This document shows, piece after piece, positions 42,738 to 56,040 of a DNA stretch of 64,000 nucleotides. Position numbers and translations under genes: made by a program. The notes under the pieces are model-generated. The model was given only the letters and a program-made list of their open reading frames with translations. It did no database searches and had not been told where the DNA came from. This stretch comes from Acidimicrobiia bacterium (GTDB taxonomy: Bacteria > Actinomycetota > Acidimicrobiia > Spongiisociales > ZC4RG35), in contig OZ244034.1 in assembly GCA_965215185.1 (NCBI GenBank), positions 1,568,001 through 1,632,000 on the forward strand, given 5' to 3'. How positions within the stretch are numbered: the stretch's first letter is position 1; every line of letters begins with the position of its first letter.

Positions 42738-42765
42738 ACCGCCCCGACTTTAGGGGGAGAGTGTT

Positions 42766-44682
42766 TTGATGCCTATTGAACATGATGTGACGGAGGCGGC
42801 TGTGGTGGCTGCTGGGGTGGTGTCTGATGAGGTGGTGGAGGCGGTGGTTTCGGACGCTGCTGCTGGTGGTGTGGACCTTCTGGGTCCTGATGGGGTGTTG
42901 GCCGAGTTGACCAAGCGGATTCTGGAACGTGCTTTGGCTGAGGAGATGACCGATCATCTGGGCTATGAGTCCGGTGATCCGATGGGTCATGGTACGGGTA
43001 ACAACCGTAACGGGTCCTCTCCCAAACAGGTGCTGACTAAAGATCGGCGCGGTGGATTTGGACATTCCACGGGACCGTAACGCTACGTTCGAACCGAGGA
43101 TCGTTCCCAAGGGCGCCCGGCGCCTGGAACGCTTCAACTCCAACATCGTGGCGTTGTACGCCCGTGGCCTGTCCACTCGTGATATCCGCTTGGAACTAAA
43201 AACGCATGTACGGCGTGTGAGGTTCCCCCGGTTTGGCGGACTGTTTTGGTTGGTGTTCATGCCACCAGTTGTTGTTGGTGGCGGTAGTTTACGGGGCTTT
43301 GTTGGTTGTTGTAGGAGTGTCTCCTTTCGGGGTTGTACCAGCCTTCGATGTACTCGAAGATTGCCAGGCCCAGCTGGTGGCGGGTCTCCCATTTCTGGCG
43401 GTCCAGCAGTTCTGTTTGGAGGGTGGCGAAGAACGATTCCACGACGGCGTTGTCGTAGGCGTCACCGACGGTTCCCATGGATTTGAGGATCCCGGCGTCT
43501 CGAAGTGTCTTCCCAAAACGCCAGGATGTGTATTGGGTTGCGTTCCGTGGTCGGAATGGTGCACCAGTCCCGAGTTGGGTCTGGGGCGCCGTTTCCACCT
43601 CGCCATTTCGAACGCGTCACAGACGATCTCTGCTTTCAGGTGGTTGGCTATGGACCAGCCGATCACTTCCCGGTTCCAGGCGTCCATCACCACTGCCAGA
43701 TACACGATGCCGCCACGGGTGGGATGCTCGGTTATATCCGCCAGCCACAGCTGGTCTGCTCTGGTCGGCGAGAACCGTCGTTCTACCAGGTCAGCCGCGA
43801 CCTGACCCTTTGACGTCTTGCGCCGGTAGGTGGCCTTTCGGCGGGTGATACCTGCTAGGCGGGCGAGGCGCATCAGCCGCTCCACCCGTTTGCGTCCCAC
43901 CCGGATACCCAGACCGTGGCGTAGCTCGGCCCATACCCGCGGTGACCCCTAGGTGCCTCGCGAACGCTCATAAATCGTTCCGATGGTCTCAGTGAGCCTG
44001 GCGTTGTCGACCCAACGCTGTGAGGGGTTGGTCCGACGTTTTCACCCGGTCGTAGAACCCCGAGGTGGACACTCCCAACTGTTTGGCCATGAACCTGATC
44101 GGAAAACCCGCCTTCTCCGCCACCCGTGAACTCATAGATCATTTCGGGAGTACGTTCTCCTGGGCGAAGAAGGCCGCGGCTCGAGAGAGCAGATCACGCT
44201 CCATTCGCAACACCCGGTTCTCCCGCCGCAGACGGGTCAACTCTTTCTTTTCTTCGGTGGACACCCCAACAGACCGGCCTTCGTCGATCTCGGCCTGGGC
44301 CACCCACCTTCGCAAACCGGAAACCGAAATCCCCAGCCGGCGAGAAATCGCCGCAACCGACTCGTCACTTTCGCGGACCAGATCCACGGCCCTACGCCGG
44401 AACTCCTCCGGATAAGGAGCAGGCATACAAATACCTCCTATTCCGAGAGACCAAACAGCCTCTCATACGATCACAGAATACGTGTCCGCAAAAACGGGGG
44501 AACTCCAGTGGACGTGTCGCCGGCGTTGGTGTCCAAGGTCACCGACGGGATTGTTGAGGAGCTCACAGACTGGGTAGAACCGGCCGCTTGACGGGTGTTA
44601 TCCCCTCTTGTACATAGATGCCATGATCGTCAAGGTCCGTACCAACGGAACTGTCATCAACCGCCCAGCGTACGTGGTGTGA
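42766..44682 (+). mobile_element. IS256-family transposase pseudogene interrupted by IS3
   Basis: RNG..PK, IPRDRNATFEP, LYARGLSTRDI, then after the insert DVSPALVSKVTD..YIDAMIVKVR. Confidence 0.85.
43218..44507 (-). mobile_element. IS3-family element (orfA 44139-44426, orfB frameshifted)
   Basis: IRs TGAGGTTCCCCCGGTTTGGCGGAC / TGGAGTTCCCCCGTTTTTGCGGAC; GTG target duplication; W.ADIT, HHSD.G, DNAVVESFF. Confidence 0.9.
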
Positions 44683-44691
44683 CGCTCCTAT

Positions 44692-45045
44692 GATGCTCCT
44701 ATTTTTGTCAAATCGTTTGTTGGGTGAGCCATTGTTGGTATTGGGTGGCGAGGTGGAGGTTGTGGTATAGGCCTCGTTCGAGTTGGGAGATGCGGTTGGG
44801 GTGGGTTTGGAGGGCGGTGGCGGCGTGGGTGAGGGTGATCTGTGTGTGGTGGCGTTGGGTGCGTAGGAGGGCGCCGTTGGGTGTTGGTGGTGGGTTGGTG
44901 AGCAGGTGGTAGATCTCTCGGGCGATGTGGCGTTTTAGGCAGCGGATGATCTCCCGGCGGGTTTTGCTCTCGGTTTGGCGGCGGTGGGTGTATTCGATGG
45001 TGGGTTGATGGCAGCGCATCCGGGTGGTGGCGATACGCCATAAGG
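44692..45045 (-). mobile_element. IS110-family 3' remnant with C-terminal HTH and element end
   Basis: LWRIATTRMRC...KTRREIIRCLKRHIAREIY; end TGACAAAAATAGGAGCATC. Confidence 0.8.
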
Positions 45046-45145
45046 ATGCTTCTATGATCTCCAAATCGGGGATTTTGGGGTGGGGGTCTTGTTTGGCGGG
45101 TTTAGGGGGTTTGGGGTGTTGGTGGTGGGTTTTCGAGTAGTCGGT

Positions 45146-46415
45146 TGAAGTTGTCCCGGTTTGGTGGACCATCACTCTGAGATTTGGGATTCTTATCCCG
45201 GAAGGAGTGTTTCATGTCGAAATCGAGAGCACCGTATGCGGTGGAGTACCGGGCGGAGATGGTTCGCCTGGTCAGAGCCGGTCGTAGTATCGAGGAACTG
45301 AGCCGGGAGTTCGAACCTTCCCATCAAACCATTCGCAACTGGGTCCGCCAGGCCGACATTGACGATGGCCAAAGGAATGGTTTGACCACCGCCGAACGGG
45401 AAGAGCTGGGTGGGCTGCGTCGGGAGAACCGGATTCTGCGTGAGGAAAAGGAGATCCTGGCAAAAGCAGCGGCCTGGTTCGCAGAGGAGACCGGATCGAC
45501 CCCGCGGAGGCGTTTGGGTTCGTGAAAGCAAACCAGGCTGTCTATTCGGTGCGGCGCATGTGCCAGTTGTTGGGTGTCACTCTCCCAGCGGCTACTACGC
45601 GTCGCTTTCCCGTCCCACCTCTGATCGGGTGAAGACCGACCGGACGCTGAGAGACCGGATAGTGGAGATCCATCACCGGTCACGGGGCACCTATGGCGCG
45701 CCTCGGGTACACGCCGAACTCGCCGCTGAGGATGTGCGGGTGGGTCGCAAAAGAGTGGCCCGTCTCATGCGTAAGGCCAATATCGAGAGTGTTCACCGCC
45801 GCCGGCGGATATCCACTACTCGCCGCGACCCGGCCAAACGGGCGGCGCCGGACCTAGCGAAGCGCCGGTTCCGCACCCAGGGACCTGACCGAATCTGGGC
45901 CGCCGACATCACCTATGTTCCCACCCAGGCCGGGTTCTTGTATCTGGCAGTGGTGATAGATCTATGGTCACGGAAAGTGGTGGGATGGTCCATGCGATCA
46001 GACCTCACCACCCCTTTGGTCACCGACGCGTTGGACATGGCTATCTCACAACGCAAAACCCAACGGAGTGCTTCTCCACTCGGACAGGGGCAGCCAATAT
46101 AGCTCAACCGCGTTCGGGAACCGATGCCAAGAAACCGGAATCGTACCCTCCATGGGACGCCGAGGAGACGCGTATGACAATGCCGTCGCCGAGTCGTTCT
46201 TCGCCACCCTCGAAACAGAACTCCTCGACCGCAACACCTACCACACCCGCACACAAGCACGCACCGCCGTCTTCGACTTCATAGAAGGCTTCTACAACCC
46301 CACCCGACGGCACTCCACCCTCGGGTACCAATCACCCACCAACTACGAAAGGAACCCCCCAAACACCCACTGAACCCTCAAACCGAAAACCGTCCACAAA
46401 AACGGGGCAACTCCA
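45146..46415 (+). mobile_element. IS3-family element (orfA 45214-45525, orfB frameshifted)
   Basis: IRs TGAAGTTGTCCCGGTTTGGTGGAC / TGGAGTTGCCCCGTTTTTGTGGAC; YGAPRV, WAADITY, HSDRGSQY, DNAVAESFF; no TSD seen. Confidence 0.88.
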
Positions 46416-46549
46416 AACAATGAAGCTACGGTCCTCCAGAGAAGGTAGATTCAAACTGGCTGATGCCGCTTGGTGCCGGTCACCTGTGAGTCTCGACTGG
46501 GCGTGGTTAGAGGCTTCGTGATGGGCGCGCCCGCCGATCTCCGACAAAG

Positions 46550-47230
46550 CTAACGCGGTACCGCCAGAGCGACCACGAGTGCGGCCACCGTCAGTAGACC
46601 GGGCACCAACACGAGCCTCGCTGGACGGAGTTCTGTGCGCCTCTTGTGTATACGCTCTATCACCCGGTCGGTGCGCTTGTCGGAGCGGAGCGCTGGCAGG
46701 CCGGCCAGCACCCCGAGAGTGACTCCTAGACCGTAGAGGAGTCCGTGGATTGGGTCGCCGTGTCCTGTCGCCACCAGGATCACGCCCAGCGCCGGTAGGG
46801 GTGTGGTCCTGACAGTCGACATGGGTAGGCCGGTGTCGAGGCCCCAGGCGAGTACGCCCAGTGGGCCCTTTAGGCGCCAGTCGTATGGGGTTTGCCGTAG
46901 TGGACCGAGGGAGGTAGACCGACCGGCCCAGAGACGTACAGAGTCGACTCCTAACAGCACCGTCGCTAACACCAGGGCAGCCAAGGTGGAGGAGTGTTCG
47001 CCAACCGTTCGCCTGACCCACACTCCGCCCGCGTGTACCGCCAGAAGGGAGAGCATTGATGAGGACAGCACGCCGAACGCATACACTCCGCTGTCGGTGA
47101 CTCTTCTAATGCCGCGGTTCGCCACGAAGGTCGGGCCGAACTGGCCCACGAAGGATATGCCTCATGGGCTGTAGCGCTGGAACCACCCACCTGCGCCTAA
47201 TACCGCCGCCGACAGCACCGACTCCAGCAA
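46550..47230 (-). CDS. MauF/CcdA-like membrane protein, probable selenoprotein (TGA at 47162-47164)
   Basis: Frame reads LLESVLSAAVLGAGGWFQRYSP*GISFVGQF, then TM helices, RQTP.DW and WGLDTG..MST; SECIS-like hairpin after TGA; exact start (47230 or 47218) uncertain. Confidence 0.65.
47126..47164 (-). promoter_or_regulatory. Putative bacterial SECIS element
   Basis: TGA-GGCATATCCTTCGT-GGGCC-AGTTC-GGCCC-GA-CCTTC: 5-bp GC stem, loop with G at position 2, loop 19 nt after UGA. Confidence 0.55.
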
Positions 47231-48232
47231 TCCTCAGCCCAACTTCGCCGCTCGAAGCCCGATGGTCGTCGAGGATGGCTTGCTCCACTCCAACGGCTCT
47301 CGGCCTGATACTGCCCGGTCTCCTGTCTCATTAAGCGTCACGTGGATGGCCTGAATTCCTTCACTATCGGCGGGCCGACGCCCTGCGCGTTGACGGCGCT
47401 GACCCGAACGAAGTGTTGAGTCCGGTAACAAAGTCGGATAGTGAAGACGCAGGAGATGTCCATTTCGAGGTCGAGGCCGGTGGTGAACTCGGGCTTGCTG
47501 TAGTCGCTTTCGTAGCCGCGACGCACACTGAGCCAATATCGGATGATTGGCGACGCTCCTTGGTCGGTGGGTGCCGACCATTCGAACTCTAAACTAGTAA
47601 GGTTGAAAACCGCATGGGCGAAGGGGATGCTAAGGTTGGCGGGCGGACCTGGAGCGTCGCCCGGTTCGCCGGTGGTTTCGGCGATTTCGCTGGAACCGTT
47701 GGCGTTGAGGGCGATTACTCGCACGGTGTATTTGGCGCCGTTGGTGAGCCCGGTGATTTCGTGGCTTCTGGATGTAGCGGTGGCCGTCGCTTGGCGGTCG
47801 GTTTCGCTGTATTCTTGGCCTGTGCCTTTCCACTGGATGCGGTATTCGGTTATTGGGGAGCCGCCGTTCCAGGGTGTGTCCCAGGCGAGGTGCAGGCCGC
47901 CGTCTATGGAAAAGACTCCGAAACCTAGGGGACGGCCAGGAATCGCAGCGGGTGTGCCTGATGTGTCAGCGGGGCTGCCCGACCCCCTGGCGTTGACAGC
48001 GATGATCCGCAGGTCGTAGGAGTCACCGTTGCGGAGAGGGCCGATGTACGCGAGCAGTTTTCCGCTCGCGGAAACTGTCACCCGCCGATGCGAGCACGCA
48101 GAGTCGTCGTAGTCTTCGCCCGCGCCTTTCCACAGCACCCGGTACTCCGATATTGGTGTGGAGCCTTCGTTGCTGGGCGACTGCCACCTGACCGCTAGAT
48201 TTTGGTTGCGGGCTGTGACGACCGGCGAGATC

Positions 48233-49369
48233 GGAGCGCCCGGACTCTCGGCTAGGAGCAGCGACCCGGTCACTGCAGGGCCGGTGCCGGTTGCGTTGAT
48301 CGCTGCGACGCTTACCGTGTACTCGTTGCCGATGGTAAGTCCGGTAATTTGGTGGCGCGGGTTGGTGACGGTGGCTCGGCGTTGGGTGTCGCTGAATTCT
48401 TCGCCGGTGTCTTTCCATTGCACTAGGTATCCGATCACGGGCGAGCCGTCGTCGGCGGGTTCGCCCCATGACACCAGCAGGTTTCCCATAGTGGAACGAA
48501 GGGTGAGGCTTGTGGGCGGTCCAGGAACTGTAAGGGGCACTCCCGTTTCTGAGGCCGGCGGTCCCGTGCCGGTGAGGTTCACGGCCCTTACTTGGACTGT
48601 GTAGGTGCTGCCGTTGTCCAGACTAGGGATCTGGTGGCGCGGGTTGGTGACGGTGGCTCGGCGTTGGGTGTCGCTGAATTCTTCGCCGGTGTCTTTCCAT
48701 TGCACTAGGTATCCGGTCACGGGCGAGCCGCCGTCGTCGGCGGGTGGCTGCCAGGTTACGGTGAGTTGCTGGTTGCCCGGTTCGATCATCATTTCGCGGG
48801 GAGCGCCCGGACTCTCGGCTAGGAGCAGCGACCCGGTCACTGCAGGGCCGGTGCCGGTTGCGTTGATCGCTGCGACGCTTACCGTGTACTCGTTGCCGAT
48901 GGTAAGTCCGGTAATTTGGTGGCGCGGGTTGGTGACGGTGGCTCGGCGTTGGGTGTCGCTGAATTCTTCGCCGGTGTCTTTCCATTGCACTAGGTATCCG
49001 ATCACGGGCGAGCCGTCGGCGGCGGGTTCGCCCCATGACACCAGCAGGTTTCCCATAGTGGAACGAAGGGTGAGGCTTGTGGGCGGTCCAGGAACTGTAA
49101 GGGGCACTCCCGTTTCTGAGGCCGGCGGTCCCGTGCCGGTGAGGTTCACGGCCCTTACTTGGACTGTGTAGGTGCTGCCGTTGTCCAGACTAGGGATCTG
49201 GTGGCGCGGGTTGGTGACGGTGGCTCGGCGTTGGGTGTCGCTGAATTCTTCGCTGGTGTCTTTCCATTGCACTAGGTATCCGATCACGGGCGAGCCGCCG
49301 TCGTCGGCGGGTGGCTGCCAGGTTACGGTGAGTTGCTGGTTGCCCGGTTCGATCATCATTTCGCGGGGA
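48233..49369. repeat. Near-perfect 567-bp tandem duplication (two FN3 domains)
   Basis: GGAGCGCCCGGACTCTCGG at 48233 and 48800; TCGCGGGG at 48794 and 49361; only a few substitutions. Confidence 0.92.
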
Positions 49370-49705
49370 ACGCCCGGTGCCGCCGCGGGTGTGGCTGATG
49401 CGGGTGGAGTTGACCATGGCCCCTCGCCCACATCGTTGATTGCCCTAACACGTACATAGTATTCCGTGCCGTTGTCAAGACTCCCGATCCGACGGTTGAG
49501 AACCTCACCGGCGACTGTCACGCTCGGGTCTGATTCCGAAAGCTGGTTATCGCCGGAACGCCATTGGAGCCGGTAGTCGGTTATTGGCCGTCTCCCGTCG
49601 TCGCCTGGTGCTTTCCACGACACTTGCAGGGCCCTGTCATGTACCAGCAGTTTGAGGTCGGTAGGAGCGCCGGGTTCGGTCGGTGTCCTAACCCGTGTCC
49701 TATTG

Positions 49706-49818
49706 CCACCACCACCCGAGCCACCACCACCCGAGCCACCACCACCCGAGCCACCACCACCCGAGCCACCACCACCCAGCCACCACCACCCGAGCCACCA
49801 CCACCCGAGCCACCACCC
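49706..49818. repeat. 15-bp tandem repeat (CCACCACCACCCGAG)x7 encoding GGGGS
   Basis: Seven units plus a partial; the fifth unit (49766-49779) lacks one G. Confidence 0.95.
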
Positions 49819-50637
49819 GCTCCCGCTCCGGTGCTTTGGTCGGCGCTGTTGTCCTCGGTCGGACATACCCCTCCGAAAGAGACGAAAGCTCGTTGCAGGA
49901 AGCTAGCCATCTGCGCACGCGTCACCGGTTCCTCGGGACAGAACCTCGCCGGGTTCACCGCACAACCCCGGGTGAGGCCCGTTTCAGCCAACGCCTGAAT
50001 GGCGTCGGTATGCACACTCTGGCCCACATCAACAAAAAACAAGGCCGACCCCGAAGCGACCAACCTGAACGCTCGTTGCAGGAAGCTAGCCATCTGCGCA
50101 CGCGTCACCGGTTCCTCGGGACAATACCTCGCCGGGTTCACCGCACAACCCCGGGTGATCCCCAAGTCTGCTATGCGCTCCACATACGGCAACCACCAAA
50201 CCCCATCCTCCACATCAACGAATCGCGACTGCGTTACCCCCAACTGGCCGTCGCCGGGCACGCCATCCCGAGGTTCGATGCTGTCGAGCACGCGCACCGT
50301 CCAAACGGCCATAGTCCAGCGCAGCACCGGTTCACTCGGACAGAAAAGGCCCTCGCCGCACTCGGTGCCGTCAAACACCCCCAACCGCGCCAGCTTCATC
50401 ACCGCCTCCGAATGCACCCCAGCATCGTCCTCAAAGTCCGCCTGAACAGTCTCAGGACCAATCGCCACTGCCGTAGCTAGCAGGGCCAACACGACCACAA
50501 CCCTCAAGGTCGCCACCCCATCCCGTACCCGAGGCCGAGTTGGGCGCTAGCCGCATCGCCTTGGAGGTCCGAGTGTTCCATCCGAAGTCTGGAAAGCCAC
50601 CGGTTCAGACGGCGACCGCACCGGGATGCCGTAGCTA

Positions 50638-50949
50638 TCAGGAGCAGCATCCGACCTGGTAGGAACACATCGTTATATTGGAAAAGCAGTCATCCCCTGT
50701 AGAGCACTCGCAGCACATGCAACGGCCGTTATTGCAGGCCCAGCACCTGATGTTCTGGTTCTGCTCGGCACATAGAAGCGGGCACCAAGGATTGTTTTCG
50801 GACTGCAGGAGGCAGCAACTGGAGCTCTGGGCCAACGCAGGCGAAGCTCCCAACAACGCCTGAGTTCCCGTCGCCACAACGGCCAGAGCCGCTCCAGTCA
50901 CCGTACGCAAGAACCACCTGCGGCTTCGCGGCGCCATCCCAATCGTCAT
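50638..50949 (-). CDS. Tat-exported cysteine-rich mini-protein (14 Cys in ~63-aa mature part)
   Basis: SRRWFLR twin-arginine motif, ALA cleavage site, CC..C..C..C..C..C.CC.C..C..C..CC pattern; ATGA overlap with the upstream gene. Confidence 0.85.
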   Translation of the reverse strand: MTIGMAPRSRRWFLRTVTGAALAVVATGTQALLGASPALAQSSSCCLLQSENNPWCPLLCAEQNQNIRCWACNNGRCMCCECSTGDDCFSNITMCSYQVGCCS

Positions 50950-51341
50950 GCCTGCTGAGACCTCGCTGCAGGTTCCGGCCCGTGAGGCAGCGGACGGGTG
51001 TCAATACGCATCTGTGTCAGGAAGCGAAACTCTCCACTCCACCGGTTCCTTGTCCACCACTCGACGCGGCGCTGCAGCCGGATGGTGTGAACCACCGACG
51101 GGACCGTTCGCCACTCACCATTCACCAACTCGATCCCAGTCTCGTCTCCTGGCTGGAACTGGAATCCCTCCGGGTAGCCCTGGTATCTGGCCCGGACGGT
51201 CCCGCCAGTGCGGTCGCTCTCCACCCACACGGCACCCGCGCCGGCATCGGACTTGTAGGTACCCAACTCAACTCCATCCTCCGGAGGTTCATAAACGTGG
51301 GCGGGGTCGGAATCGGGTGTTTGGGGAAGGTGGTCGCTCAT
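50946..51341 (-). CDS. Hypothetical protein in the mau-like cluster
   Basis: GAGGAG upstream; stop overlaps the peptide start; no family recognised. Confidence 0.65.
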   Translation of the reverse strand: MSDHLPQTPDSDPAHVYEPPEDGVELGTYKSDAGAGAVWVESDRTGGTVRARYQGYPEGFQFQPGDETGIELVNGEWRTVPSVVHTIRLQRRVEWWTRNRWSGEFRFLTQMRIDTRPLPHGPEPAARSQQA

Positions 51342-51355
51342 CCGGTTTCATCTCC

Positions 51356-51991
51356 TCACTGCTCTAGGTCCACCCCGGATGACCCCAGACGTTGTCCCTG
51401 GGCTATAGGGGTTGTCGGGTCCGCGGTCGCATCCATTTTCGGCTTACGGAAGGGCCCTGGTGCCATCTCAAAGGCCGCAAGGCGCCCGGTCAGTAGATCA
51501 TTAAGCGCACGCCGACCCCCGATACCAGCACCGAATGCGATCCGGCCCCCTAAGACACCCACCGCGGACGGGCTTGACGAAACGCCCAGTCCCTTGACGA
51601 TCGACATGTCATCGTCGAACACCAACTCTTCCAGGGGGAGCCCCTGAGCTACCGCCCACTTACGCATCCGCACCGGGTCGGCAGCGGTCACCACGATAGA
51701 TACACCGTCCGGTATCAAGCCATCGAAGGAACGAACCAGCCGCTCGCAGGCACTGCAGACGGGGGAGATCACCAACACCACATGCACCGAAACCCCGTCG
51801 ATGTGCTCAGGCAACCCATTAGAACTGGCCAGAGAGCCGACCGCATCGGGCGCCAGGTCGAACTCCTCGAACAAATCCTCGGCCGGGTTCCTCGACCCCG
51901 CCCGCTCAGCCAACAACTCCATCACCGCCAACGCGACCAGCCCACACAGAACTAGTGCCACGACGGCAATTACCAACGCAGCGACTACCAC
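51356..51991 (-). CDS. MauD-like membrane-anchored thioredoxin-fold protein
   Basis: N-terminal TM helix, ISPVCSAC (CxxC), LGVSSSPSAV cis-Pro loop; GTG start overlaps the MauE-like stop. Confidence 0.8.
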   Translation of the reverse strand: MVVAALVIAVVALVLCGLVALAVMELLAERAGSRNPAEDLFEEFDLAPDAVGSLASSNGLPEHIDGVSVHVVLVISPVCSACERLVRSFDGLIPDGVSIVVTAADPVRMRKWAVAQGLPLEELVFDDDMSIVKGLGVSSSPSAVGVLGGRIAFGAGIGGRRALNDLLTGRLAAFEMAPGPFRKPKMDATADPTTPIAQGQRLGSSGVDLEQ

Positions 51992-52578
51992 ACAGACGCC
52001 TCTGGATCCGAAGCCCGAGCCGCGAACGGGTGGGCGAAAACAGTGCGTCGGTGAAAAGCGATCGTGTGCACCCTTCGCCAGAGCCGCGTAACCACCAACG
52101 TAGTGGACAGCACGGCGCAACATGCGAGCATGAACAACCCCACCTCCGGCCGGGTCCCCTCGCCGAACAACGATTGGTCTTGTGCCACACCCCACGCAGC
52201 TGCCACCCACAACGGCAACTGGAGAATCTGCGGCCACCCAAGAGCTCGGTCCGACCGACCGAAACAGGCGCAAGACACCTTGCTGGTGCTGGCAATCCCG
52301 ACAACGCCCACGACAGCCAGACCAACCGCGAACAACAACAAAGCAAGGGCCGCCGCCGCGGACCGCTCAATCACGATCACCCAAGCCAGAACGACCTCGA
52401 ACACACCAAGTAGCCGCCCGCTGAACTGCCACCCAGACCCGCGAGGCCGCCAGCCAATGGCCTGCCACAGCTCGGCCAACGTCTCCGCAACCGGCGCGGG
52501 CTGAACTATCTTGGCCGAACCCGCCACCAATAAAACCGTCGCCGCTCCCATCACCATCAGATCGGCCGCACCTGTCAT
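51985..52578 (-). CDS. MauE/DoxX-family membrane protein
   Basis: LLVAGSAKI, LGVFEVVL, SCACFG (CxCFG); GGAGGAGG RBS before ATG 52578. Confidence 0.85.
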   Translation of the reverse strand: MTGAADLMVMGAATVLLVAGSAKIVQPAPVAETLAELWQAIGWRPRGSGWQFSGRLLGVFEVVLAWVIVIERSAAAALALLLFAVGLAVVGVVGIASTSKVSCACFGRSDRALGWPQILQLPLWVAAAWGVAQDQSLFGEGTRPEVGLFMLACCAVLSTTLVVTRLWRRVHTIAFHRRTVFAHPFAARASDPEASVW

Positions 52579-53751
52579 CAGCGCCTCCTCCCGCAATGCC
52601 CCTCAGGTTCGAACACAACGGCAATACGTGCCGGAGCGGTAGCCGTTTTCACCACCACCAACCCAACTTCCCCAGCACCGAGGTGGCCCGGCTACAATCC
52701 ACGGCAGTCTGCAACAACCCCACAGCCACCACGGAGAATCAACCCCTAACGTTGTGCGTTTGTCCCGCTGCCAACCGGCGGTTGTGCGTTGATTCGAACA
52801 GTCCTTCACTCCCTTTGCAGTGCTTTGACAGTGTAAGGACCTTTTCTGGCACAATAGATGTGTAGAAACGTGTCGCCTGTAAGGTTATGCGTGTCATGAG
52901 TGTGGTTAGGCAGAAAATCAGCACCATCAACCAAAAAACCCACCAAACAACCTGACCGATCCTCCACGATCTGCCGAGAACCTCCCCCACCCAACAGCAG
53001 AAAGAAGGCCAGACCCCAACTGCCATGGAGAACCAACAAAGAGCGCGACTAGCAATCGAGCAGGACACGGTCGAAAACCCAAGAGCCGTGTTGCTTGAGT
53101 CAGGCCCAGTGATTTCCGGTAGGTGGCCATAATCCCCGCAGAGAAAGAGCCATTGCGCGTTGATTTGAACGAGGGTGGTTGTGGGCAACGCGGGCGGGGG
53201 TCGGATTGGATGCGTAACGGCGAATGCGCTAGGCGCTATCGGCCGAGGCGGGCTGGCTAGCTCGGTCGGGTTACCGTAGCGCATAGGTAGGCACCGGCCT
53301 CTGATGTCCTTGTTGCCAACTCAAGGTATCTCTTTGAATTCGGGAATGTTCGGATCGAGACCGTGGGCCCGCAAGGATGAAATCTCGAAGAGTTGTCGTT
53401 GCAAGATATGGAAACGAGACCGTCGCTGGTTTCGATTAGTAGTGAGGAGGCGGTTTCCCAGGCCGTTACCGGCTTGCCCTCGTAACGGACTAGATCATGA
53501 ACTTTCTTCGCGATTCGGCGACCGCCAACGTTTCGATGCAAACGTGCAGCCACGATCCGACCCCCTAGAAGGGCGATCAGACGCTGCCGAGAGAACAGGA
53601 CGTAGTCGGGACTTTCCTTGAGGAAGGGTGAGCCCGAACCGTCGTTCGATGCGCTCACCTCAGTTGGCTCGACGTCGACAAGAACCTTGTTCGGAGCGCC
53701 GCTGACCGAAGAATTGGTGTCTTCCCGTTGGCCTTCTAGGTGAGCTCCTAT

Positions 53752-53990
53752 GATGCTTCTATGATCTCCAAATCGAGTCTTTTGGTGGGGGGTGGTGTGT
53801 TGTCGGGGGTTGATTTCGCAGGGGTTTAGGGGGCGGTTCCACGGTTGGGTGGGTTTTCGAGGATGCGGTAGAGGTGGCGGGCGATGTACCGATGCTCCTA
53901 TTTTTGTCAAATTGGGTTTTGTTGTGGGGCGGGTGCGGTTAGCCATTGTTGGTATTGGGTGGCGAGTTGATGGTTGTGAACCGCCGACTT
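53752..53990 (-). mobile_element. Two stacked IS110-type 3' ends
   Basis: GATGCTTCTATGATCTCCAAATCG (as at 45046) and GATGCTCCTATTTTTGTCAAAT (as at 44692), with QYQQWLT tail. Confidence 0.7.
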
Positions 53991-53999
53991 GTATGTGGG

Positions 54000-54225
54000 T
54001 TACTGGTCGCTGTGGCTGTGAAGGTCGTAGCGTCTGGTAGGCCGTTGGCTGGGTTGGCTCGTGAACCGTCTGCCACTTCTTTGGGTTGGCTCTCCCGGGG
54101 TGTGCCACCCAGTTGACGGCTGGCTGCGGTCTGGCTCAACAGAGGCGTGATTTCCCCCAGTGGGTCTCGAAGTCGGCATGCCGACCGCGGTGTCCCCGTT
54201 TCTCGGAGAGCAAAGGACCAAGAAC
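54000..54225 (+). ncRNA. Candidate IS110 non-coding leader (bridge/seek RNA region)
   Basis: ~220 bp without a convincing ORF directly upstream of the IS110 ATG; positional inference, structure not computed. Confidence 0.35.
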
Positions 54226-54482
54226 ATGATCATCGGAGTTGATCCACACAAGAGCAGCCACACCGCTACGGCAGTGGACGCGGTTAGAAACACGGCGGTG
54301 GGTTCGTTGCAGGTCGATGCCACCCTGGCGGGCTATTGGCACCTGTTGCGGTGGGCACGTCAGTTCAAGGATCGACGGTGGGCGGTTGACAACGCCCGAG
54401 GCTTGGGGTGTCATCTCGCTTTAGTGGCTTGTTGCCAAGGACGAGATAGTGTTCGACGCGTCGACCTCAGCTACCGCCCGTG
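54226..54482 (+). mobile_element. IS110 transposase 5' remnant
   Basis: MIIGVDPHKSSHTATAVD...WAVDNARGLG; cut by IS3. Confidence 0.85.
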
Positions 54483-54741
54483 TGGAGTTCCCCCGTTTTT
54501 GCGGACACGTATTCTGTGATCGTATGAGAGGCTGTTTGGTCTCTCGGAATAGGAGGTATTTGTATGCCTGCTCCTTATCCGGAGGAGTTCCGGCGTAGGG
54601 CCGTGGATCTGGTCCGCGAAAGTGACGAGTCGGTTGTGGCGATTTCTCGCCGGCTGGGGATTTCGGTTTCCGGTTTGCGAAGGTGGGTGGCCCAGGCCGA
54701 GATCGACGAAGGCCGGTCTGTTGGGGTGTCCACCGAAGAAA
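54483..54741 (+). mobile_element. Left part of a second copy of the 43218-44507 IS3
   Basis: Near-identical IR and MPAPYPEEFRRRAV orfA, truncated. Confidence 0.88.
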
Positions 54742-54769
54742 TGAATCGCACCGGCTTTAATAGAGACTT

Positions 54770-56040
54770 TGGTGGTACCCGACTTTGGTGGAGTCGGGTT
54801 ATTTGAATTGGTGGTGTGACTGACCCGAAAGGAGTCTTCATGCCTTATCGATATCCACCCGAGTTCCGTCGCAGGGTGCTGGATCTGCTGGCAGTTGGCA
54901 GGTCGGTGGCGTCGTTGTCAGCGGATCTTGGGGTGTCTGATCAGACGATCTACAACTGGCGGCGCCAGGACCGAATCGACCGCGGTCTACAACCGGGTGC
55001 CACTTCGGAGGAACAGGCCGAACTGTGGGCCGCTCGCTGTCGGATCGTCGAGCTGGAAACCGAACTGGCCGTGACCAAGCGGGCTATTGAACTGCTGGGA
55101 GACCAGGTGGTGTCCCTCAAAGACGCTACCAGGCGATCCGGACCATGAGAACCGAAGGGCTTCCCAGGTGGCGTGTCGAGCGCTCGAGGTGTCACAGTCC
55201 GGGTTCTACGCCAGGGTGGTCCCGGCCGCCGTCAGCCCGCTTGCATCCGCCACGCCTGGCTGACCGACGTCATCTGTCACATCCATGAACAGTCACGCGG
55301 CACCTATGGGGCGCGGCGGGTGCACGCCGAACTGCGGTTGGGTCATGGAATAACCGTCGGACACAACGCAGTAGCGATGCTGATGAAAAGAGCCGGTCTA
55401 GCTGGTCTTAGTAGGTGACCGAAGTCCCAGACGGCGGACCCGCCCGGTGGACACGCCCGGTGGACCTGGTCGACCGTAACTTCGCCCGTTTCGAACCGGA
55501 CCAACTGTGGGTGACCGATATCACAGAGCATCCCACCCGGCAAGCGCAAGGTGTACTGCGCGGTGGTGCTGGACGTGTACGGGCCGCCGGGTCGTCGGCT
55601 GGTCGATCGACAACACGGCCACCTCCAGACTGGTCACCTCCGCGTTAGGTATGGCAATCGGGAACCGCCAACCCGACCCCGGCACGGTCATACATTCGGA
55701 CCAGGGCACCCAATTCACCTCCTGGGCGTTCACCCAACGGGCCCTCGAATCCGGTCTGGTTCCGTCCATGGGAACCGTCGGGGACTGTTTCGATAACGCC
55801 ACCATGGAATCGTTTTGGGCTCGTATGCAGGTCGAGCTGTTGGACCGCAGGAGGTGGAGGACCCGTATCGAACTCGCCAACGCTATCTTCGAATACCTAG
55901 AGATCTTCCACAACCGCCACCGGCACCACACCGCACTGGAAATGCGCACCCCCATCGAATACGAAAGAAACCACAACAACAACCTAACCATCGCACCACT
56001 GATCCAAGTGAGCTGACTCCACAAAACCGGGGGACCATCA
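54770..56040 (+). mobile_element. Third IS3-family element (degenerate orfB)
   Basis: IRs TGGTGGTACCCGACTTTGGTGGAGTC / TGATGGTCCCCGGTTTTGTGGAGTC; YPPEFRRRVL, WVTDITE, HSDQGTQF, DNATMESFW. Confidence 0.85.

Follow-up and report, generated by a model that had tools for sequence, protein, structure and literature searches.

A mau-like gene cluster of Acidimicrobiia with a probable membrane selenoprotein and a Cys-rich Tat-signal peptide

The mau cluster, mauFBEDACJGLMN, encodes methylamine dehydrogenase (MADH) in Paracoccus and Methylobacterium. Its MauA product is a small, disulfide-rich subunit that is exported by the twin-arginine translocation (Tat) pathway and needs MauE and MauD. The present work concerns a gene cluster at positions 46550-52596 of a 64,000-nt stretch of DNA from an Acidimicrobiia bacterium (G000:C1:1568001-1632000); this whole stretch is called the window, and coordinates are counted from its first letter. 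The cluster encodes a MauE-family membrane protein, a thioredoxin-like CxxC protein, a Tat-type peptide with 14 Cys and a polytopic membrane protein in which an in-frame TGA probably encodes selenocysteine (Sec). On balance we lean towards reading it as a self-contained, extracytoplasmic system that would form and shuffle disulfides in a family of Cys-rich peptides exported by Tat.

MauE itself is described as a general DsbB-like oxidase in the abstract and first part of the Results of a recent preprint, where two MauE proteins complement E. coli dsbB and their CXC motif is needed (Gonzalez et al., bioRxiv 10.64898/2026.03.05.709764). The conserved active-site CXC is placed there between helices three and four. 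In the sections of Kloosterman et al. 2020 drawn on here (decRiPPter, PMC7794033), Streptomyces candidate families of RiPPs (ribosomally synthesised peptides with post-translational modifications) are reported with mauE (three families) or mauD (one), precursors with at least eight Cys and no other mau genes. A 2026 review of prokaryotic selenoproteins lists 119 families in its Table 1 (PMC13188914). The portion of an Actinomarina preprint drawn on here reports many uncharacterised selenoproteins in another Acidimicrobiia order, none named like the S-P-U-G protein treated below. No description of the S-P-U-G family or of this cluster type was found in the literature, the bioRxiv supplements and S2 Table of PMC7794033 being outside the scope of that search.

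Gene content and recurrence of the cluster

The window comes from a genome assembled as one contig of 3.12 Mb and 95% complete. A first-pass annotation of this DNA, made from the sequence alone, had named six co-directional genes, the first four overlapping or nearly so. All six are present between 46550 and 52596, every one on the minus strand, and the close packing is borne out at the MauE/CxxC and 131-aa/peptide junctions. The genes, together with the recoded codon and its hairpin, are as follows.

51985..52596, minus strand: MauE-family membrane protein with the CXC motif CACFG (PF07291); start at TTG 52596 or ATG 52578
51356..51991, minus strand: predicted membrane-anchored thioredoxin-like CxxC protein with the motif SPVCSAC (from the sequence); start at GTG 51991, overlapping the stop of MauE
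50946..51341, minus strand: 131-aa protein lacking a signal peptide, residues 24-112 modelled as an OB-fold-like beta barrel; its stop overlaps the peptide ATG by 4 nt
50638..50949, minus strand: 103-aa Tat-type precursor (SRRWFLR ... ALAQ) with a mature part of about 62 aa holding 14 Cys (from the sequence and homologues)
47338..50516, minus strand: SLH-G4S-FN3 wall-anchored protein with seven FN3 domains (Pfam SLH PF00395; fn3 PF00041, seven matches); one gene in two frames
46550..47230, minus strand: 226-aa polytopic membrane protein with a predicted Sec in S-P-U-G and no other Cys (from the read-through open reading frame and its relatives)
47162..47164, minus strand: in-frame TGA, probably read as Sec; TGA likewise in loci L002, L003 and L004
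47130..47149, minus strand: hairpin like a selenocysteine insertion sequence (SECIS), GGGCC-AGUUC-GGCCC plus a flanking extension; its loop contains GU, and it begins 13-15 nt downstream of the UGA

The same set of genes is found in other genomes. Searches by tblastn with the window proteins detected the MauE, CxxC, 131-aa, peptide, wall and membrane proteins encoded together at L002, L003, L004, L056 (G494) and L057 (G577). The set recurs at L058 (G492), where the 131-aa OB-fold gene was not detected, and a degraded copy of the cluster is present at L059 (G489). The gene order is shuffled between loci, with three different orders. Neighbourhood comparison accordingly shows the set kept together as a unit in six further genomes of Acidimicrobiia, besides one degraded copy, and because it recurs in this way the cluster is more than a chance assembly. 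None of this evidence rests on genomes flagged as unpublished. Two samples were used for counting, one of 401 genomes of the order and one of 401 genomes of the phylum Actinomycetota. In the former the window-type cluster is rare and patchy, close matches to its membrane protein being found in about 5 of the 401 genomes.

The closest association is that of the peptide with the Sec protein. Their genes are immediate neighbours in G444, where a peptide relative with 9 Cys lies immediately upstream of the membrane gene (L060). In the phylum sample, three of the four other peptide-positive genomes (G899, G855 and G826) carry the peptide gene less than 100 nt from a membrane-family gene that contains a TGA; there is in addition an upstream CxxC thioredoxin-like gene in G855, and a MauE-like reading frame with CGCFG in G826. 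In the fourth, G779, no membrane-family gene was seen on the short contig piece available.

The in-frame TGA and the membrane protein family

The reading frame at 46550-47149 extends in frame through the TGA to a start near 47230. Identity on either side of the TGA is 57-99% in L002, L003 and L004, and changes in the four codons that separate the TGA from the following GTG are mostly synonymous. The SP-x-G motif is present at 33 of 34 loci, and its variable column holds TGA in 11 of the 33, TGC or TGT in 22, and neither TAA nor TAG in any; without the loci from unpublished genomes (L032, L040 and L051) the counts are 11 TGA and 19 Cys. At 11 further loci the column holds TGA nine times and TGC twice (TGA in 8 of 10 when L074, also from an unpublished genome, is set aside). 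The family profile matches 95 of the 401 genomes of the order and 81 of the 401 of the phylum, and exactly one TGA is found in 69 of the 85 phylum match rows, or in 59 of 75 without the ten rows from unpublished genomes. Nearly all of the 34 database homologues are 199 aa long, and none of the 25 aligned extends upstream beyond the TGA, which fits systematic truncation at this codon by gene callers. The TGA is not a sequencing error. Contigs of four runs from four studies bridge it, and no change at this position is among the best-supported differences listed.

Hairpins accompany the TGA forms. For the window clade, whose hairpin has 5-7 bp, the RNAalifold consensus of 8 sequences is a stem of 7 pairs with four one-sided (G-U) changes. 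Synonymous sites are somewhat better conserved there, 3 of 6 sites using one codon throughout within the hairpin compared with 2 of 18 outside. In the S-M-L-x-S-I clade, the TGA of 11 of 12 Sec forms is followed at 9 nt by a perfect 5-bp hairpin, ATGCT-N4-AGCAT. The hairpin is found in none of 24 Cys forms, in which the same Ser/Thr is encoded by other codons; without all four loci from unpublished genomes the comparison is 10 of 11 Sec forms to 0 of 21 Cys forms. The genome also encodes the Sec machinery, namely tRNA-Sec (78.2 bits), selB (309.8), selA (405.3) and selD (387.7), and tRNA-Sec was found in all five other TGA-form genomes and in three of the five Cys-form genomes tested. The column shared by TGA and Cys, the conservation on both sides, the hairpins of the TGA forms and this machinery strongly support the Sec-type TGA named in the first-pass annotation, and the codon very probably reads as Sec.

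Two observations were made on the machinery itself. The tRNA-Sec gene is located at C1:1541240-1541330, about 27 kb before the window start. The selD gene, outside the window at C1:1864217-1865137, has an in-frame TGA of its own, so SelD is itself a selenoprotein here.

The affinity of the membrane protein to known families is distant. The best relative matches are those of L070, with 26.8 bits for DsbD_TM (cut-off 27.1) and 23.5 for DsbD_2 (cut-off 24.9), and no rival family recurs among the Pfam matches of 32 members. The AlphaFold2 (AF2) model of the window protein has a mean pLDDT of 86.6. Its best VIA-align matches are NqrE and RnfA, at a Z of 6.0 that is weak for helical proteins and an rmsd of 4.6-4.9 over 135-141 residues. 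A search of the family profile against the Protein Data Bank (PDB) returned rows of GAPDH alone, which were judged spurious. The genome's own CcdA has two SPC motifs. The family is accordingly described as 'distantly DsbD/CcdA-like' and not as a member. The CcdA likeness proposed in the first-pass annotation has behind it the near-threshold DsbD matches of some relatives, but is not carried by the window protein itself, which has no DsbD model match.

None of the 119 families in Table 1 of the selenoprotein review has the S-P-U-G motif or this architecture, and the protein matches none of the models named there (PMC13188914). The family, with its Sec and Cys forms, appears widespread in Actinomycetota and is an uncatalogued family of probable selenoproteins. 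It was further observed by eye that the neighbours of loci L032-L053, which carry Cys forms, are housekeeping genes, among them FtsK-like and pyruvate dehydrogenase E1-like genes.

The peptide, its companions and the wider module

The SRRWFLR motif and the 14 Cys reported for the peptide are both present. All 14 Cys are invariant in five of five homologues from a word-indexed search, which found just these five proteins. A profile search of 1.84 billion representatives gave 87 clusters with E<=1e-3, of which 31 reach E<=1e-10 and 3 reach E<=1e-30. The members are nearly all 75-180 aa long; a tandem-repeat form was also seen, P0081, a 1141-aa protein with five copies of the peptide domain. An alignment of the window peptide with 25 of the 87 clusters (26 members in all) holds 10 Cys, W70 and E81 invariant, in the pattern CC...C...C...W.C...C.EC...C...CS. 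W55 is kept in the closest clade alone, and RR in at least 90% of the 26 members. Including this one, 5 of the 401 Actinomycetota genomes have the family. TatC is encoded in the genome (198 bits).

The peptide finds no match among light chains of the MauA type. It has no Pfam match even at E 10, Me-amine-dh_L included, and a profile of the five peptides searched against all PDB sequences gave eight weak matches, with no light chain of MADH or aromatic amine dehydrogenase (AADH) among them. It is about half the size of MauA, in line with the earlier remark on its shortness, and has one invariant Trp where tryptophan tryptophylquinone (TTQ) needs two. Searches for PF02975 (light chain), PF06433 (heavy chain) and PF03150 (MauG and cytochrome c peroxidase, CCP) returned no match each in the genome, with positive controls for PF03150 alone. 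As the first-pass annotation had supposed for mauB and mauG, no MauA, MauB or MauG/CCP family member is thus found in the whole 3.12-Mb genome. Three findings bearing on that annotation agree: the peptide does not match the MauA-type light chains searched, mauB and mauG were not found elsewhere in the genome, and the gene set does hold together as a unit. The cluster has nothing to do with methylamine dehydrogenase. In a search for a genuine mau cluster, tblastn of MauE against plasmids gave no match, and a metagenome scan gave a single 1951-bp locus.

The MauE assignment of the first-pass annotation, with its CxCFG motif, is secure. PF07291 matches residues 14-138 at 41.9 bits (cut-off 27; E 1.5e-10), this is the only match in a genome-wide PF07291 search, and C-A-C-F-G is kept at six of six related loci. 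For the CxxC protein, called MauD-like in the same annotation, the CxxC motif, the N-terminal anchor (a hydrophobic helix preceding SPVCSAC) and the position agree with that name, while the MauD equivalog model TIGR02661 gives no match even at E 10. The protein is accordingly described as MauD-like by position and predicted architecture. Its MauD-like counterparts in other clades reach only 22-25 bits with TIGR02661 (E 1e-5 to 6e-5), against a cut-off of 188.6, and hhalign aligns the CxxC family to them with a probability of 68.9% (E 4.5e-5) and the CxxC in register. The nearest clusters in a protein language-model space are Trx-, TlpA- and AhpC-like (0.92-0.95), and its PDB matches are of thioredoxin type, at E 0.38-1.6. 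It should be mentioned that contigs of three of the four public runs have two bases fewer at 51404, which would alter the C-terminal tail of this protein; L002 likewise changes frame near that position.

The 131-aa protein is modelled as a cytoplasmic, OB-fold-like protein. Its AF2 model (pLDDT 80) gives generic small-barrel and OB-fold matches, the best at E 3e-3 with Foldseek and Z 7.9 with VIA. It has 11 homologues, none with a Pfam domain, and no usable match in the Protein Atlas. A complex prediction with the peptide precursor scored 0.10, with a mark of 0.32.

The SLH-G4S-FN3 surface protein is likewise confirmed by its Pfam domains and is one gene, split in the window by a 1-nt deletion. 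The SLH part occupies 49581-50516 and the FN3 part 47338-49866. Between 49705 and 49817 on the minus strand lies a 15-nt G4S-coding tandem repeat of 7.6 copies, one unit of which is 1 nt short near 49777. The corresponding gene, SLH or other anchor with FN3, is a single reading frame in L003, L004, L056, L057 and L058, and L002 is in frame through the G4S repeat. Either the gene is truly frameshifted here, in a repeat prone to slippage, or the assembly is at fault; the latter is possible because short-read contigs of four public runs do not bridge the repeat. The wall protein accompanies the cluster in the window and in L002, L003, L004, L056, L057 and L058. At L004:5001-9503 the FN3-array protein has no SLH match, and its N-terminus resembles a different wall-binding repeat by eye. 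Judged by eye from this locus, the type of anchor varies while the FN3 array is kept.

The membrane proteins of the cluster also occur beside other secreted proteins. In other Actinomycetota, a MauE (PF07291, 1.2e-12), a MauD-like protein and the Sec protein adjoin secreted proteins that hold about 30 Cys in about 200 aa, and at one locus a Tat-signal CWB2 protein. The Cys-rich neighbours are the following.

L068:199-849, L072:174-788 and L073:166-774: secreted proteins, each of about 200 aa and with some 30 invariant Cys; the adjoining genes are of MauD-like and S-P-U-G type
L069:2-1471 and L071:1-1218: a domain with about 30 Cys followed by LGFP wall-binding repeats

The proteins of about 200 aa have no Pfam, NCBIfam or PDB match. 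A suspected likeness to MADH light chains found no support in Pfam or the PDB and was dropped. Homology to the peptide family is unsupported, hhalign aligning a 14-column stretch, CCxLxxxxNxxCP, alone (probability 4.5%). Judged by gene neighbourhood, the three-part membrane module appears to be general, with extremely Cys-rich, wall-associated candidate clients as its neighbours.

Insertion sequence (IS) ends around the block, also noted earlier, are indeed present as fragments of IS3-family transposases on both sides.

45184..46373, plus strand: IS3-family transposase orfA/orfB, frame-broken, next to the 3' end of the cluster (Pfam HTH_Tnp_1, HTH_21, rve, rve_3)
44139-44426, minus strand: IS3-family fragment (Pfam)
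54564-55418, plus strand: IS3-family fragment (Pfam)

Several such fragments, some frame-broken, lie in the flanks 42750-46480 and 53000-56000. The left block (42.75-46.48 kb) is missing from the close relative L002, which is 93-99% identical, and is therefore a strain-specific insertion and not part of a mobile unit. No second full-length copy of the 45150-46400 element was found in the genome. On these two grounds the idea of a composite transposon was dropped.

A proposed folding route, its rivals and comparison with known systems

Selenols are good catalysts of disulfide exchange. The 14 Cys of the peptide could pair in 135,135 ways, and the route that we propose for their pairing runs as follows. 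The 103-aa precursor would be exported by Tat and its signal cut after ALAQ. MauE, as a DsbB-like, quinone-linked oxidase acting through its CXC, would re-oxidise the anchored CxxC protein, which in turn would introduce disulfides into the peptide. The Sec protein would be the opposing arm, its selenol reducing or shuffling wrong disulfides through selenenylsulfide intermediates, either on the peptide directly or via the thioredoxin-like protein. The OB-fold protein may serve as a cytoplasmic helper, and, as the LGFP-fused clients suggest by analogy, the product is probably held or presented at the cell wall by the SLH-FN3 protein. We infer the roles of MauE, the Sec protein and the wall protein alike; that of oxidase is assigned to MauE because two MauE proteins replace DsbB in E. 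coli, as reported in the part of the preprint cited above (10.64898/2026.03.05.709764).

The same source, in presenting MauE as a general DsbB-like oxidase, indicates that the first-pass annotation probably had the direction wrong in calling the redox-folding machinery 'repurposed', and the module is also found beside other Cys-rich secreted proteins across Actinomycetota. That earlier interpretation stands in part: unit conservation, the lack of MauA, MauB and MauG, and the Sec-type TGA hold, whereas 'repurposed' probably does not and 'CcdA-like' is limited to sub-threshold matches.

A bolder proposal is held here only tentatively. The S-P-U-G protein may be the first selenoenzyme of extracytoplasmic folding, a CcdA-like protein that would work with one selenol through selenenylsulfide intermediates and, with MauE and the MauD-like protein, fold peptides of 10-14 Cys and, in other Actinomycetota, wall proteins of about 30 Cys, the products being held by SLH, LGFP or CWB2 anchors. 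If this is true, selenium use in many Actinomycetota would be a matter of cell-envelope protein folding.

Several findings weigh against the folding reading. The Tat signal falls short of its model, TAT_signal_seq TIGR01409 scoring 12.8 bits with a cut-off of 16.7 (TIGR02811, E 0.011), and Tat export followed by oxidation outside the cell is unusual. No thioredoxin model matches the CxxC protein directly, there being no Pfam or NCBIfam match and no significant PDB sequence match. The window membrane protein has no Pfam or NCBIfam match even at E 10, and at E<=0.01 only 3 of the 32 family members match DsbD_2 and 2 match DsbD_TM. Foldseek of its AF2 model gives no match at E<=1e-3, CcdA 5vkv being third (E 0.33, probability 0.57, TM-score 0.33). 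An hhalign comparison of the family with the genome's own CcdA has a probability of 3% and aligns the W-S-P-C motif alone. The family has one invariant Sec/Cys column, while CcdA and DsbD need two Cys. In the window-clade hairpin, none of the 11 predicted pairs shows compensatory changes. In addition, the large Cys-form clade L032-L053 (for example L033 and L043), with the motif W-S-P-C-G-V-S-M-L, stands alone without MauE or thioredoxin-like neighbours. The core job of the family may thus not be peptide folding, and a general role apart from peptide clusters is suggested.

The first alternative is metal or metalloid handling. The S-P-U-G protein would be a transporter of LysE/DsbD_2 type in which Sec binds a soft metal (Cu, Hg, Cd, As or Se itself), the peptide a metallothionein-like binder in the wall or outside the cell, and MauE and the thioredoxin-like protein would just set the redox state. 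The DsbD_2 family also holds metal permeases, and DsbD_2 is among the best Pfam matches of the relatives. A single Sec/Cys suits ligand binding better than a dithiol relay, Tat usually exports folded, cofactor-loaded proteins, the mature peptide has 14 Cys in 62 residues, and CusF and HypC appear, weakly, among the structural neighbours of the OB-fold protein. Against these, the MauE oxidase and the CxxC thioredoxin-like protein are consistently present, and the invariant Cys, even in number and constant in spacing, fit a disulfide scaffold; the loci examined showed neither a metal-binding domain nor a P-type ATPase or a metal regulator. We consider this explanation unlikely.

A second alternative is an antimicrobial or signalling peptide, bacteriocin- or RiPP-like, folded by MauE and the thioredoxin-like protein, with the Sec protein mainly an immunity or export partner. 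The Streptomyces candidate RiPP families, as far as the sections drawn on describe them, offer a precedent in mauE or mauD beside precursors with at least eight Cys (PMC7794033). The adjacency of peptide and membrane genes in G444, G899, G855 and G826 and the patchy distribution of the cluster, in about 5 of the 401 genomes of the order, would also fit. However, the membrane family is present in 81 of the 401 Actinomycetota genomes, mostly without the peptide (5 of 401), and its invariant Sec/Cys speaks for redox or ligand chemistry and not for passive immunity. The cluster contains no protease, ABC exporter or modifying enzyme, and this explanation is quite improbable.

Much less probable still is a cross-linked cofactor peptide like those with TTQ or cysteine tryptophylquinone (CTQ), in which the peptide would be a minimal quinoprotein small subunit with modified Trp and Glu, partnered by the OB-fold or wall protein. 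It draws on W70 and E81, invariant in 26 diverse members beside 10 invariant Cys, and on the parallel with MauA in Tat export, abundant disulfides and dependence on MauE and MauD. Against it, the invariant Trp is one only, Me-amine-dh_L is unmatched at E 10 as are the solved MADH/AADH light chains, MauG/CCP and MauB were not found in the genome, and no radical-SAM or flavoprotein gene lies in the cluster. Finally, that the TGA is a true stop separating a 23-codon upstream reading frame from a 199-aa protein that starts at the GTG four codons later is barely credible, even though gene callers annotate the 199-aa form, the GTG is there and no Cys-form homologue was found within the closest clade, given that 22 of 33 and 2 of 11 loci have Cys in this column, that the stop codon is always TGA, that frame and amino-acid conservation continue across it, the four codons up to the GTG differing for the most part synonymously, that the hairpins are specific to the TGA forms, and that the Sec machinery is present.

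The findings matter in several ways. On the disulfide-folding reading, which we continue to favour, selenium would be linked to disulfide chemistry at the membrane's outer face, where the review of 119 families has no selenoenzyme (PMC13188914). The newly proposed MauE folding pathway would gain a natural, genetically linked client and two candidate partners, and so become testable with a defined substrate. The peptides are defined as a family, small, with a Tat-type signal, 10 invariant Cys, one Trp and one Glu, and could serve as stable disulfide-rich scaffolds. The selenoprotein family occurs in 81 of the 401 Actinomycetota genomes, mostly as Sec forms, and truncation at the UGA by gene callers hides it in protein databases. 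'Mau' annotations outside methylotrophs are not to be taken as methylamine metabolism.

We have compared the cluster with the systems nearest to it. Like the catalogued selenoproteins (PMC13188914), whose membrane representatives are NqrE (PF02508), MerT-like (PF02411), YeeE/YedE (PF04143), SaoP and the rhodanese/DsbD-fusion TsoB, the S-P-U-G protein carries one predicted Sec, at a site of redox type, has orthologues with Cys, shows a SECIS-like hairpin downstream of the UGA and is truncated in databases. It differs from them in motif and architecture, and its structural likeness to NqrE and RnfA is weak at a Z of 6.0. With CcdA-ResA/TlpA and DsbD-DsbC (PF02683 DsbD_TM, PF13386 DsbD_2) it shares the setting, a polytopic membrane protein beside a thioredoxin-like protein with a predicted membrane anchor. 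The W-S-P-C/U of the family resembles the S-P-C motifs of the genome's own CcdA, some relatives are near the DsbD_TM/DsbD_2 thresholds, and CcdA is among the top Foldseek rows. In contrast to those systems, there is one redox residue and not two Cys, it is Sec in most family members, the window protein has no model match, and hhalign of the family with the genome's own CcdA gives a probability of 3%.

The decRiPPter families, in the sections drawn on, are similar in that an actinobacterial mauE, in some cases joined by mauD but by no further mau gene, accompanies a small Cys-rich predicted precursor; those sections mention no selenoprotein, and the present cluster has in addition the putative Tat signal and the OB-fold and SLH-FN3 proteins (PMC7794033). 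The MauE pathway, like DsbB-DsbA and VKOR-Trx, has a four-helix membrane oxidase with a redox CXC that is presumed to re-oxidise a thioredoxin-fold partner of exported clients, and MauE occurs far beyond mau clusters; the abstract and first part of the Results mention no selenoprotein partner (10.64898/2026.03.05.709764). Here, by contrast, one operon joins MauE to a Sec membrane protein and to a particular client that is extremely rich in Cys.

The mau cluster itself offers the fullest parallel in gene content: a MauE with CXC, a CxxC thioredoxin-like protein with a predicted anchor at the MauD position, a further polytopic membrane protein and a small, presumably disulfide-rich product with a putative Tat signal. 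The present cluster departs from it in that no MauA, MauB or MauG was found in the genome, in that its peptide is about half the size of MauA, with no Me-amine-dh_L match and one invariant Trp instead of two, and in that its third membrane protein is, on the evidence of the TGA, a selenoprotein.

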